Shown here in pieces: positions 47,938 to 52,193 of a stretch of DNA of 64,000 nucleotides. Both the position numbers and the translations under genes were made by a program. The notes beneath the pieces are model-generated. The model did not search any database, was not told the DNA's origin, and saw only the letters and a list, made by a program, of their open reading frames with translations. Within the stretch, counting starts at the first letter, position 1. Each line of letters begins with the position of its first letter. The DNA is taken from contig OY970178.1 in NCBI GenBank assembly GCA_963707915.1, positions 928,001 to 992,000 on the forward strand, written 5' to 3'. The DNA is from Candidatus Eiseniibacteriota bacterium (GTDB lineage Bacteria > Eisenbacteria > RBG-16-71-46).

Positions 47938-49881
47938 ATGATCCAGTTGCAGGGACTGCGCTACTCCATCGGCGAGCGCCTGCTCCTGGAGGACGTCGAC
48001 TGGGTCCTCTCCCCCGGCGACCGCTGCGCCCTGGTCGGGTCGAACGGCACCGGCAAGACCACGTTGCTGCGGCTCATGCTGGGCCAGCTCGTGCCCGACT
48101 CGGGGACGCGCGTGCTGGCCCGGGGCGCGCGCGTCGGCTACCTGCCCCAGGAGGCGGCCGAGCGCTACGACGGCACCGTGCTCGAGCGCGCCATGGAGGC
48201 GTACCACGGGTTGCTCGCCATGCGCGAGGAGCTGGACGCGCTGCACCAGCGGCTCGGCGGCATCGCCCCCGACGACCCGGCGCTCGAGCACCTGCTCGAG
48301 CGCACCGGCGAGCTCCAGCACCACCTCGAGCTGGCCGACGAGCACGCGCTGGAGCCGGAGGCGCGGCGCGTGCTCTCCGGGCTCGGCTTCTCGTTGCGCG
48401 ACCAGGACCGGCCGCTGGCGCGGTTCTCCGGCGGCTGGCGCATGCGCGCCGCGCTGGCCGCCCTGCTGCTGGCCGACCCCACGCTGCTGTTCCTCGACGA
48501 GCCCACCAACCACCTCGACCTGCCCGCGATGGAGTGGATGGAGGACTACCTCGAGGACTTCCACGGCGCGCTGGTCGCGGTCTCGCACGACCGCGTCTTC
48601 CTCGACCGCGTGGCCGACGAGGTGCGCGAGCTCGAGGCGGGCCACCTCACGGTCTTCGCCACCAACTTCACCGGCTACCTCGAGGAACGCGGGCTGCGGC
48701 GCGAGCGCATCGAGGCGCAGAACGAGCAGGTCGAGAAGAAGATCGCCCAGCTGTCGCGCTTCGTCGAGCGCTTCGGGGCCAAGAACACCAAGGCCAGCCA
48801 GGCGCAGAGCAAGCGCAAGCAGATCGAGCGGCTGCGGACGCAGCGCGTCGTGCTGCCGCGCCGGCCGCGCGGCATCCGCTTCCAGTTCCCCGCGCCCCCC
48901 CACTGCGGACGCACGCTGGTGCGCCTGCGCGGGGCGGCCTTCGGCTACGACGAGACCGACGTCTTCGCCGACGCCACCCTCGAGATCGAGCGCGGCGACA
49001 AGTTCGCCATCGTCGGCGCGAACGGCGCCGGCAAGACCACGCTGCTGCGCGTGCTGGCCGGACAGCTCGCGACCCGCCGCGGCGAGCGCGAGGCCGTTCT
49101 CCACACGCACATGGCCTACTTCGCCCAGCACGCCGCCGAGGCCCTCGACGGCTCGGACACCGTGCTCGATTCGCTCGACGCCATCGCGCCTCCGGAGTGG
49201 CGCCCACGCCTGCGCTCGCTGCTGGGCAACTTCCTGTTCAGCGGCGACGACGTGTTCAAGCTGGTGCGGGTCCTCTCCGGCGGGGAGCGCCAGCGGGTCG
49301 CGCTGGCGCGCACGCTGATGGAGCCCGCCAACCTGCTGCTGCTCGACGAGCCGACGCACCACCTCGACCTCGCCGGCAAGGAGGTGCTCGAGGACGCGCT
49401 GGTCCAGTACCCGGGCGCGCTGATCGTCGTCACCCACGACCGCTCGCTGATGGCGCGGGTCGCCACGCGGGTGATCGAGGTGAGCGACGGTCGCGTCACC
49501 CTCTACCCCGGCGGCTACGACGACTACGAGGCGGCGCGGCTGGCGCGCGCGGGGGCCGGGGCGAAGGCCCCGCCGTCGGCGAGCGAGGCTCCGGCCCACG
49601 GCGGGGCCCCTGCCGCCCCGGCGGCGAAGGAGGAGCGGCGCGGCGCGGCCGCGCACGAGCAGGCCCGCCGGGCGCAGGCGGTGGAGCGCAAGCGCACGCG
49701 GGAGGTCGAACGGATCGGGCACGACATCGAGGTCCGCGAGTCGAAGCTGCGAGAGCTGGAGGCCCAGCTCGCCGACCCGGACGTCTACCAGGACGGCGCC
49801 CGGGCCCGGGACCTGGTCACCCGCTACGAGCGGCTGCGGGCCGAAGTCGAATCGCTGTGGCAGCGGCTCGGCGAGTTGTGA
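47938..49881 (+). CDS. ABC-F family ATPase
   Basis: Two ABC domains (GSNGTGKTT / FSGGWRMR / LDEPTNHLD and GANGAGKTT / LSGGERQR / LDEPTHHLD), no TM segments, C-terminal coiled-coil. Confidence 0.95.
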
Positions 49882-49940: not shown

Positions 49941-50690
49941 CTAGGGACCGCCCTGCACGATCCAGCGCACGAGAACGGTGGTCACCACGGCCCAGGACAC
50001 GCTCGCCAGGGAGCCCACGAGGTAGTACTCGGACAGTTCCCGGCCCCCGCCCTCCCGCGACTCGGGTAGCCGGAGGATGGCCTTCGCGGCGATCACGAGT
50101 CCTACGAGGGCTTCGAACCGCAGCAGGATCGCGACGAACACCAGGGTGCGCTCGAGCAGGCCGATCGCGCGCCCCGCGCTCAACAGACCGGGTCGCGGCT
50201 GCTTCAGCAGGTCCTCGAGATGCGGGGTCAGCGGTCCCACGACACGCCCGACGACCACCGCCCCCGCCCACACGCAGGTGATGAACCCGGCCACCAGGGC
50301 GTAGACCCGGACATCCATCCCGGCACGTGCCAGGAGCGCCGGCAGCTCCGCCGCCGCACCGGGGGTCACCCAGACGGAGACCAGGCCGAACGCGGCCAGG
50401 TGAGCGGACTGGTCGATGACCAGGGTCCGGAGGGAGCGGGTCGCGAAGCGGCTCGTCATCCAATCGAGGAGGGCGTGCGCGGCAAGGACCAGCGCGCAGC
50501 CCCACCACAGGACCGGGGTCGGCGGAGTCGTGGCGACGACGATCGCGAGCAGGAGGACCAGGTGGATCGCCAGGTGGAGGGCGAGCGGGCCGGGCCGGTG
50601 CTTCTCCTGCGCCTGCCCGCGGGTCTGCAGGAGGAAGTCCCCGATCAAATGGGCGGTCAGGAACTTCAGGAACGCGAGCAGGAGCGTCAT
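49941..50690 (-). CDS. DUF3307-family membrane protein
   Basis: AHLIGDFLLQ, HLAIH, HALLD, DQSAH, then GRAIGLLER...AAKAILR...SEYYLVGSLAS. ATGA-coupled to satD. Confidence 0.88.
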   Translation of the reverse strand: MTLLLAFLKFLTAHLIGDFLLQTRGQAQEKHRPGPLALHLAIHLVLLLAIVVATTPPTPVLWWGCALVLAAHALLDWMTSRFATRSLRTLVIDQSAHLAAFGLVSVWVTPGAAAELPALLARAGMDVRVYALVAGFITCVWAGAVVVGRVVGPLTPHLEDLLKQPRPGLLSAGRAIGLLERTLVFVAILLRFEALVGLVIAAKAILRLPESREGGGRELSEYYLVGSLASVSWAVVTTVLVRWIVQGGP

Positions 50691-51424
50691 CGCGTTCGCC
50701 TTCCCGGGCGCGAAACCCCGGATTCAACCTTGAGGGGTTGAGCGGGCCCGCGGGCCGCGTCGCCCGCGTCGCCCCGGGAGGGCATTCCCCCGCTCGAGGA
50801 CTCCAGCAGGCGCATCGCCCCCAGCGCCTCGTTCCAGGACGCGGCGCGCAGGCGCTTGGAGACGGACTGGAACGTGACGCCGCTGCGGCGGGCGATGTCG
50901 TCCATGCCACGCGTCTCGAGGCGCCCGGCCACCGCTTCCCACTGTGCCGGCGTCCAGCGGTTCATGATCGCGTCCAGCAGGGGCAACATCGAACCCGCCC
51001 AGCGGTCGAACAGGGGATCACCGGTGACCCAGCCCGTCAGGCGGCCGGCCTTCAGCCCTTCGATCGCGGCACGCGCGCGATGGAAGGCCTCCCCCTCGGA
51101 GGCAAACGGACCCTTGGGACTCATCCGGACGATGCGCCCCGCGCCGAGGCCGACCCTCAGCCGCATCCGCCGGCCTTCGCGCCCCGCCAGTTGGGCTCGC
51201 AGGTACGTCAGGATGGTCAGCGCCGGGGCATCGGGGCGCAGGACCGCCTGCATCTCGTCGCCCTTCAGCACCTGGGGACCCAGGCGGAAGTGCCCTCGGT
51301 GGACGTGCAGGGTGCGGTCGATCGCCCTGGCCAGGGCCCGGTCCGCGCCTGCGCGATCCGCCGTGGGGATACTGCGCGAGGACACCAGGTCGGCAATGAA
51401 CACCTGCCATCGAGGGTTCTGCAT
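50687..51424 (-). CDS. satD: SatD family protein (cyclase-like palm domain plus C-terminal HTH)
   Basis: FIADLVSSR, KGDEMQAV, LRVGLGAG, EGEAFHRARAAIE, WTPAQ, and HTH MDDIARRSGVTFQSVSKRL. SD AGGAGG 7 nt before ATG 51424. Confidence 0.85.
   Translation of the reverse strand: MQNPRWQVFIADLVSSRSIPTADRAGADRALARAIDRTLHVHRGHFRLGPQVLKGDEMQAVLRPDAPALTILTYLRAQLAGREGRRMRLRVGLGAGRIVRMSPKGPFASEGEAFHRARAAIEGLKAGRLTGWVTGDPLFDRWAGSMLPLLDAIMNRWTPAQWEAVAGRLETRGMDDIARRSGVTFQSVSKRLRAASWNEALGAMRLLESSSGGMPSRGDAGDAARGPAQPLKVESGVSRPGRRTR
50721..50742. promoter_or_regulatory. Palindromic operator-like site 1 (TCAACC-N6-GGTTGA)
   Basis: gatTCAACCttgaggGGTTGAg, in the satD 3' tail about 30 nt before the DUF3307 start. 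Confidence 0.65.
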
Positions 51425-51426
51425 CA

Positions 51427-51448
51427 CTCAACCTCCTAGGGTTGAATC
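51427..51448. promoter_or_regulatory. Palindromic operator-like site 2 overlapping the satD SD
   Basis: cTCAACCtcctagGGTTGAatc. The minus-strand AGGAGG lies in the spacer and stem. Confidence 0.7.
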
Positions 51449-51450
51449 TA

Positions 51451-51478
51451 CATATTCAACCTTCTGGGGCTGAATGTG
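51451..51478. promoter_or_regulatory. Palindromic operator-like site 3 overlapping the satD -10 box and predicted TSS
   Basis: catatTCAACCttctggGGCTGAatgtg, a near-perfect 28-bp dyad. Confidence 0.65.
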
Positions 51479-51501
51479 CCACCCTCCGGCGGGCCTGTCA
51501 A
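51473..51501 (-). promoter_or_regulatory. Sigma70 promoter of satD-DUF3307
   Basis: Minus strand: perfect TTGACA (51501-51496), 17 nt ending in TGG, then CACATT (51478-51473). Confidence 0.6.
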
Positions 51502-51523
51502 GGGTTCCTGCCGGCCGTGCGGA

Positions 51524-51553
51524 TTGACGTCCCCGCACCCGCCGGGATAGTCT
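51524..51553 (+). promoter_or_regulatory. Sigma70 promoter, probably leaderless, for the BMC-T gene
   Basis: TTGACG-N18-TAGTCT, 7 nt before ATG 51561, no SD. Confidence 0.6.
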
Positions 51554-51560
51554 CCGTTTC

Positions 51561-52193
51561 ATGGCCGACGTCACCCTGCGCACCTACGTCTTCCTCGACG
51601 ACCTGCAGCCGCAGCTCGCCGCGTTCGTGGGCACGACCGCCCGGGGCTTCCTGCCCGTGGCCGGCGTCGCCTCGCTGTTCGTCGAGATCGCCCCGGGGCT
51701 GATCATCAACCAGCTCATGGACGTGGCCCTCAAGGCCACGAGCTGCACGCCGGCCATCATGGTGGTCGAGCGCGCGTTCGGCATGCTCGAGATCCACGAG
51801 TGGGACAAGGGCCAGGTGCAGACCGGCGGGCAGGCCGTGCTGGACTACCTGAAGCTCGAGGAGCACGACCGCATGAAGCCCCGCGTGGTCTCCGACCAGG
51901 TCATCCGCTCGGTGGAGCCCTACCACGCGCAGCTGATCAACAAGATCCGCTACGGCGACCAACTGCTCCCCGGCGAGTCGCTGCTGATCCTCGAGAGCGA
52001 GCCCGCCGCCTACATCGCCTTCGCCGCGAACCAGGCCCTGAAGTCCGCGCACGTGAAGCTCATCGACGCGCAGCTCTTCGGCGCCTACGGCCGGCTCTAC
52101 CTGTCGGGCCCGGAAGCCGAGATCGACGCCGCGCGCGACGGCGCCCTGCGCAGCCTCGAGACCATCAAGGGCCGGGACCCGGCGAAGGGCTGA
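51561..52193 (+). CDS. Bacterial microcompartment shell protein, tandem permuted BMC-T (CsoS1D/CcmP-like)
   Basis: LRTYVFLDDLQPQLAAF, SLFVEIAPG, VVERAFGMLE, LLPGESLLILESEPAAY..AANQA, FGAYGRLYLSG. Confidence 0.9.
   Translation: MADVTLRTYVFLDDLQPQLAAFVGTTARGFLPVAGVASLFVEIAPGLIINQLMDVALKATSCTPAIMVVERAFGMLEIHEWDKGQVQTGGQAVLDYLKLEEHDRMKPRVVSDQVIRSVEPYHAQLINKIRYGDQLLPGESLLILESEPAAYIAFAANQALKSAHVKLIDAQLFGAYGRLYLSGPEAEIDAARDGALRSLETIKGRDPAKG

Follow-up and report, generated by a model that had tools for sequence, protein, structure and literature searches.

Auxiliary operators and DNA loops are a described means of repression at the lac operators O1, O2 and O3 and by lambda CI at OR and OL. Inverted repeats of 18–22 bp, with half-site centres ~12 bp apart and bound by the dimer of a helix-turn-helix (HTH) protein, are known from the TyrR boxes and the CRP site. 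The name SatD reportedly stems from the original paper on the sat operon. Here we examined a window of 64,000 nucleotides (the whole stretch analysed, from contig OY970178.1 of a Candidatus Eiseniibacteriota bacterium) that carries satD (50687..51424, minus strand; 245 aa from ATG, with an alternative GTG at 51427) and, immediately downstream, a DUF3307 gene (49941..50690, minus strand; 249 aa), whose ATG overlaps the satD stop codon as ATGA (50687–50690). We consider it probable that four palindromic sites in this operon are operators for a two-fold symmetric SatD dimer, which would repress its own synthesis and silence DUF3307. An initial annotation, made from the letters of the sequence, had proposed such operators. 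Its core, satD-DUF3307 as a unit autoregulated by an HTH repressor through tandem palindromic operators, was largely upheld by the comparative evidence below.

In the available portion of one report, satD is an "essential accessory gene" of Streptococcus pyogenes (PMC11323703). The accessible parts of other papers name it among the genes of the S. mutans sat cluster and, in S. suis, list it as a small-RNA target annotated "DNA-binding protein". Among the literature searched, as far as the accessible text of the sources goes, DUF3307 was encountered in one phage-genome paper only. No DNA target of SatD had been known to the initial annotation, and literature searches on SatD gave none.

Tandem palindromes at the satD operon

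Three copies of the inverted repeat TCAACC-N6-GGTTGA had been reported around satD, and all three were recovered, at 50724–50741 and 51428–51445 with no mismatch and at 51456–51473 with the one mismatch already noted. When up to one mismatch was allowed, the window contained these three matches against 0.03 expected by chance, a number reached in 0 of 100 dinucleotide shuffles of the window. With up to three mismatches, 26 matches were found against 12.7 expected; beyond the three sites, one match (39828) has two mismatches and the remaining ones have three. The motif had not been noticed elsewhere in the 64 kb, and indeed the degenerate pattern TC[AG]NCC-N6-GGN[CT]GA also returned these three sites alone. 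The count of three was too low. A 28-bp pairing conserved in relatives pointed to a fourth, degenerate site at 50696–50713, exactly 28 bp from the copy at 50724–50741, which matches neither the strict nor the degenerate pattern. The window therefore holds four sites in two tandem 28-bp pairs, 51456–51473 with 51428–51445 at the satD promoter and 50724–50741 with 50696–50713 at the junction with DUF3307, with 704–732 bp between the pairs.

All four sites are described here on the minus strand. The upstream distal candidate operator (51456..51473; sense TCAGCC-N6-GGTTGA) aligns with the distal sites of eight relatives. It had been described as covering both the -10 box and the transcription start; it does span the predicted start, and of the conserved -10 box it shares only the last T, which is the first base of the site, so that it overlaps the core promoter of satD. 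The upstream proximal candidate (51428..51445; perfect motif, 28 bp from the distal one) holds the satD Shine-Dalgarno (SD) sequence AGGAGG (51432–51437, minus strand), in agreement with the initial annotation, and its edge is 3 nt before the ATG at 51424. The downstream distal candidate (50724..50741), a perfect palindrome, ends 33 nt before the DUF3307 ATG (50690), matching the ~30 nt given before. That description was incomplete in that the site is also part of the satD open frame and is translated there as AQPLKVES, in the variable, low-confidence C-terminal tail of the protein. The downstream proximal candidate (50696..50713; sense TCGCGC-N6-AGGCGA) overlaps the DUF3307 SD sequence GGGAAGG (50699–50705), ends 5 nt before the DUF3307 ATG and has counterparts in L002–L008. 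As for the conspicuous AT-richness ascribed to the sites, it was borne out at the upstream pair (GC 0.47–0.52 in 51390–51479 versus ~0.72 around it) and not at 50724–50741, where no 60-nt dip was seen.

Ahead of the upstream pair, a -35 box TTGACA (51496..51501, minus strand) and, 17 nt after it, a -10 box CACATT (51473..51478, minus strand) are predicted. TTGAC is present in 9/9 aligned upstream regions and the -10 box reads CA[CT]A[TC]T in the 9 regions, with its A, A and T columns invariant. Transcription would start ~7 nt downstream of the -10 box, within the distal site. A sigma-70 promoter scan did not call the satD promoter, whose -10 box CACATT matches at 3/6 positions; the promoter was retained nevertheless because both boxes are conserved in the nine aligned regions. 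The terminator scan returned no terminator.

A search for SatD relatives found 72, nearly all with PF16264 and mostly from Candidatus Eisenbacteria. The comparison set comprised 28 related loci, each fetched with up to 3 kb on either side; L001–L008 are of Eisenbacteria type (n = 9 with the window), and Streptococcus satD loci are outside the set. All nine Eisenbacteria-type loci share one layout, namely -35 TTGAC, 17–18 nt, -10 CA[CT]A[TC]T, distal site, and proximal site 28 bp later, the spacer and right arm of the proximal site carrying GGAGG just ahead of the satD start. A second 28-bp pair is present at the DUF3307 start in 8/9, its proximal member carrying the DUF3307 SD. The ninth locus, L001, has lost DUF3307 by deletion together with the junction pair, and has kept satD and the promoter pair. 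In this closest genome relative, a remnant of DUF3307 (L001:3641–3736) corresponds to the last 32 residues, with 75% identity, and is read in the satD frame. The degenerate pattern matched 19/30 expected positions in L001–L008 and 0 elsewhere in their 44,928 bp.

The half-sites were tallied by coordinate-based extraction from the 34 sites of the window and L001–L008 (68 half-sites). Position 1 is T in 68/68, position 2 is C in 65/68, position 3 is A in 42 and G in 25, position 4 is C in 38, A in 23 and G in 7, position 5 is C in 63/68 and position 6 is C in 60/68. The consensus is approximately tTC[AG][ACG]CC-N6-GG[TGC][CT]GAa, in which the flanks extend the symmetry. The shared asymmetric flanks that the initial annotation had seen on two copies are not conserved; those that are kept are symmetric, with T before the site in 28/34 and A after it in 26/34.

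The motif is also found at satD loci beyond this group. Under a looser, family-wide rule (looser motif with a partner site 28 or 29 bp away; 165,188 bp scanned), 21 of 29 satD loci had pairs in their control zones. Of 38 pairs in total, 35 fell in such zones, and shuffles yielded 3.9; one of the three pairs scored as lying elsewhere (L026) is actually upstream of the true satD start. The half-site varies by lineage, with TCACC[CT]-N6-[AG]GGTGA at Bacillota-type loci, GCACCC in L009 and L026 and ACACC in L020, and the motif tracks satD through Eisenbacteria, Bacillota and Acidobacteriota-type loci and a haloarchaeal plasmid. At L018 (211–257) and L019 (369–415) each of the two promoter sites is the exact reverse complement of the other, spacer included, so that together they form a larger inverted repeat; the Eisenbacteria pairs are arranged directly instead. 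In several Bacillota-type loci (L010:2890–2900, L013, L015) a conserved CGGCAGGAA block precedes the distal operator by ~30–40 nt; it could be a -35 region recognised by a different sigma factor, or an additional site.

The haloarchaeal case came from a tblastn search of plasmids, which found two distant SatD homologues, in Halorientalis and Arthrobacter. The Halorientalis plasmid has an annotated SatD-DUF3307 pair (L030, NZ_CP019068.1) preceded, within 125 bp of satD, by four palindromes TTCG[GC][CT]-N6-[AG][GC]CGAA in two 29-bp pairs (L030:1713–1835, NZ_CP019068.1 138693–138815), the last of which ends 3 nt before the start codon. These four are the only strict matches in the 276,813 bp of the plasmid; 20 other bare TTCG-N10-CGAA words occur on it without the fuller motif. 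Both pairs are upstream of satD here, and the gene junction has no pair. The half-site, TTCGCC, is similar to the TTCGCC(C) of Eisenbacteria, but the two arms are set 2 bp closer together.

That the repeats are there by chance, or are neutral and functionless remnants of duplication, has nothing more in its favour than that a single genome contains few of them, and is hardly credible. Only 0.03 matches would be expected, and the position and spacing of the sites are kept at 49–78% protein identity and across phyla, in surroundings whose non-coding DNA is unalignable. Recent transfer of one element could in principle mimic such conservation, but SatD protein identities of 26–83% among the related loci argue against it.

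The junction sites also affect how the end of SatD is to be read. In 6/8 relatives (L002, L003, L004, L005, L006 and L008) satD takes its stop codon from an operator, as the TGA of the right arm, and an alignment of 21 SatD proteins shows C-terminal tails that share a short pattern beyond a variable linker. In Eisenbacteria this shared tail is best read as translated operator DNA, not as a protein motif. Regulatory DNA that is translated as a C-terminal "tail" is a caution for annotation.

SatD as the candidate binding protein

SatD of the window matches PF16264 over residues 10–196 (37.6 bits, cut-off 29; E 2.4e-9). Its structural model has a predicted local distance difference test score (pLDDT) of 89.3 and consists of a beta-alpha palm domain (residues 6–133) and a helical C-terminal domain, followed from about residue 213 by a tail with pLDDT 50–65. 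Helices 174–181 and 185–194 of the model form an HTH, and a LacI-type HTH profile matches exactly at residues 174–194, at a subthreshold E of 0.0039. F185, Q186, V188 and K190–A194 are nearly invariant in 21 sequences. In Foldseek searches the N-terminal palm matched class III adenylyl/guanylyl cyclases (3et6, 7yz9, 4wp8 and others; E 1.5e-5 to 5e-4), with template-modelling (TM) scores on the target of 0.5–0.6. D12 and G55-D56-E57, which we read as the metal-binding acidic residues of a cyclase, are invariant in the same 21 sequences. The SatD sequence had no match among Protein Data Bank chains at E ≤ 1, NCBIfam holds no model for SatD or DUF3307, no SatD relative was found in the phage collection, and neither protein matched the anti-phage defence and toxin-antitoxin models of PADLOC at E ≤ 0.01.

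A SatD homodimer was predicted with an ipSAE interface score of 0.80 against 0.02 for the best control; at least 96% of contacts recur between runs, and the pLDDT of the partner is 88 or higher. A score of 0.80 was reached by 20/30 solved same-chain pairs and by 1/23 single chains, a calibration that is rough because the dimer prediction used an alignment of our own. The predicted interface is formed by helices 138–156 and 196–215 and leaves the HTH free. The model thus supports a two-fold SatD dimer suited to a palindrome.

The sites might still be operators for another DNA-binding protein encoded elsewhere, with satD-DUF3307 belonging to the regulon of that conserved factor. Binding by SatD rests on prediction, and the scan covers 64 kb of the source genome plus the flanks of each relative, an extent with which a genome-wide regulon of another factor is compatible. 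The SatD recognition helix is moreover identical in TCAACC- and TCGCCC-type Eisenbacteria loci. Yet the motif tracks satD across phyla and onto the haloarchaeal plasmid with lineage-specific half-sites, and no strict match was found outside satD control regions in the 44,928 bp of flanks, the rest of the window or the rest of the 277-kb plasmid. L001 retains the promoter pair with satD alone after DUF3307 loss, and there is no syntenic second regulator. We regard another factor as unlikely.

The putative target of the proposed repression, the DUF3307 protein, matches PF11750 (45.5 bits, cut-off 23; E 9.4e-12) and is modelled as an all-helical membrane protein (pLDDT 90). Residues D18, H43, H72, D76, Q94 and H97 are invariant, and a second conserved block contains E180, R181, K203, R207, E221 and Y222. 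Its model had no match among solved structures by Foldseek (best E 0.65), and a search of the ESM Atlas returned DUF3307 clusters only. DUF3307 is the gene after satD in 18/25 related loci tested.

DNA operators, RNA hairpins and a proposed mechanism

Palindromes on ribosome-binding sites (RBS) may also act in RNA. The four sites could be cis-acting mRNA hairpins that mask the RBS of satD and DUF3307, giving translational attenuation with or without a hairpin-binding protein, and no DNA operator would then exist. Both proximal sites do have an SD inside them, the satD leader folds into the proximal hairpin (-11 kcal/mol, z -2.74), and the arms co-vary across loci (86.8% of cells pair; co-variation score reached in 1/500 shuffles). 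This co-variation is lost, however, when right arms are permuted within a locus. Each left arm forms 4.79 Watson-Crick pairs with its own right arm versus 4.72 with that of another site at the same locus, and 2224 of 5000 permutations scored at least as high, so that there is no site-specific compensation. Variation in the half-sites thus follows the genome and not the single site, a pattern that fits one trans-acting protein better than hairpins. Even with G.U allowed, all six pairs are intact in just 16/34 sites, 18/34 having at least one non-pair. The fourth site of the window does not fold into a hairpin (z +1.14), no Rfam family matched at E ≤ 1 in 50500–51700, and the fixed 28–29 bp pairing has no obvious RNA rationale. 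Sigma-70 geometry places the transcription start shortly downstream of the -10 box; with the distal promoter site directly against the conserved -10 box, the left arm of that site is expected to be untranscribed. Hairpins in place of operators are therefore improbable.

Besides the fold of the satD leader, one more signal hints at an RNA layer. At arm pair 3 on the sense strand, the 17 proximal sites have 9 G.U and 0 A.C combinations, unlike the 17 distal sites with 1 G.U and 5 A.C (Fisher p ~0.002, uncorrected for relatedness). The proximal bias may reflect the SD context or an RNA hairpin layer, and an additional effect on the RNA, at the ribosome-binding sites, is a minor possibility.

This bias counts against an account by DNA operators only, and so do several further observations. 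We know of no reason for the constant overlap between a DNA operator and the SD of the next gene. The 28-bp centre spacing corresponds to ~2.7 helical turns, so adjacent dimers would not lie on the same face of the DNA. No -35/-10 is recognisable before the junction pair in the Eisenbacteria flanks. Under the 28–29 bp rule, 8/29 loci have no qualifying pair; among these, L015 and L017 show pairs under a looser scan, L009 shows single sites and L024 is a truncated locus. L021 has DUF3307, yet no site was found there. The Gemmatimonadota loci L023, L025 and L028 have no convincing sites; they have no DUF3307 and carry an Iso_dh gene next to satD instead. The Arthrobacter plasmid homologue (L029) has a different palindrome and no TCRMCC-type site, and was not counted as support. 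Co-variation between recognition helix and half-site, which the initial annotation had suggested looking for, was not seen within Eisenbacteria, where the helix sequence QSVSKRL is shared by loci with a preference for TCAACC and loci with a preference for TCGCCC. Across phyla, a link between the two is only suggestive, in that both GCACCC loci share KRLSAAGW.

Set against these points, the computational tests of conservation, locality, half-site co-variation, promoter position, HTH and predicted dimer agree with autorepression operators for SatD; what did not survive of the earlier proposal is its description of three sites with common flanks. From sequence and models we infer that SatD binds the four sites, that binding represses, and how the junction pair acts. 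Two SatD dimers on the promoter pair, 28 bp apart, would block initiation. One dimer would lie over the transcription start and the adjoining edge of the -10 box, its neighbour over the early transcribed region with the RBS. SatD would thereby repress its own operon. The junction pair, 704–732 bp downstream, would add control of DUF3307, most likely by anchoring a repression loop to the promoter pair or by standing in the way of elongating polymerase as a roadblock, since no -35/-10 precedes it in Eisenbacteria. A translational component stays possible because the junction site constantly overlaps the SD. DNA affinity would be set by the cyclase-like N-terminal domain, presumably acting as a sensor.

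A more far-reaching proposal, which we hold to be doubtful, is that satD-DUF3307 is a self-silenced two-gene module of Bacteria and Archaea, in which a cyclase-like sensor-repressor on four operators keeps a harmful membrane protein off until a nucleotide or stress signal at the palm releases it, giving an addiction-like or abortive-response-like system. In a bolder variant, SatD would read the same palindrome both as DNA and as an RNA hairpin that includes the SD, and this would account for the constant location of the proximal sites on RBS and for the G.U bias on the sense strand.

SatD and DUF3307 are widespread families without known molecular function, and the conserved operator is a first testable molecular handle on them. 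The operator reading predicts that SatD is a repressor, which bases to mutate, and that DUF3307 is derepressed on satD loss. Essentiality of satD, as described for S. pyogenes in the accessible part of its source, would be the expected look of a repressor of a harmful partner, and the predicted derepression is therefore a possible explanation of that phenotype.

No second regulator gene is conserved beside satD; its Eisenbacteria neighbours are a bacterial microcompartment (BMC) shell gene and an ABC-F ATPase gene. The former (51561–52193, plus strand), divergent from satD, encodes a CcmP-like tandem-BMC shell protein (NCBIfam beta_CO2some_P, 254 bits, under the cut-off of 340; Pfam BMC match subthreshold). 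The sigma-70 scan calls its promoter at 51524–51551. It adjoins satD in L003, L004, L006, L007 and L008. A Candidatus Eisenbacteria-like genome here carries a gene for a microcompartment shell. The ABC-F type ATPase gene (47938–49881, plus strand), convergent with DUF3307, encodes two ABC domains, ABC_tran_Xtn and a C-terminal domain, and is syntenic in L002, L004, L007 and L008.

Comparison with known regulatory systems

The satD sites share with the TyrR boxes and the CRP site the 6-N6-6 geometry only; the sequence and the protein family are unrelated. PucR/CdaR regulators resemble SatD in domain order, with the HTH placed after a palm or GGDEF-like domain, and whole SatD matched two such structures weakly by Foldseek (3onq_C, E 1.8e-4; 9f80, E 5.6e-4). 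However, the root-mean-square deviations were 14.5–15 Å and the TM scores only 0.26–0.28, SatD has neither a Pfam PucR or HTH_30 match nor the N-terminal PucR sensor region, and its best fold matches are the catalytic domains of class III cyclases.

Autoregulated type II toxin-antitoxin operons are similar in that a DNA-binding protein is encoded by the first gene, which the second overlaps by ATGA, and palindromic operators lie at the -10 box and transcription start. That satD is an essential accessory gene in S. pyogenes, according to the available portion of PMC11323703, is a further likeness. SatD differs in having a cyclase-like domain, and PADLOC gave no match. Toxicity of DUF3307 and binding between SatD and DUF3307 are hypothetical here, and the Eisenbacteria locus is syntenic chromosomal DNA, not an island.

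With lac and lambda the satD operon has in common palindromic operators at its own promoter and remote ones hundreds of bp off, one of them in a coding frame. It differs in that SatD belongs to PF16264, in that the remote set is always on the RBS of the next gene, and in the 28–29 bp tandem spacing. Looping is put forward at satD as a proposal only. A further likeness is the arrangement of adjacent operators in tandem sets, which suggests cooperative dimers.

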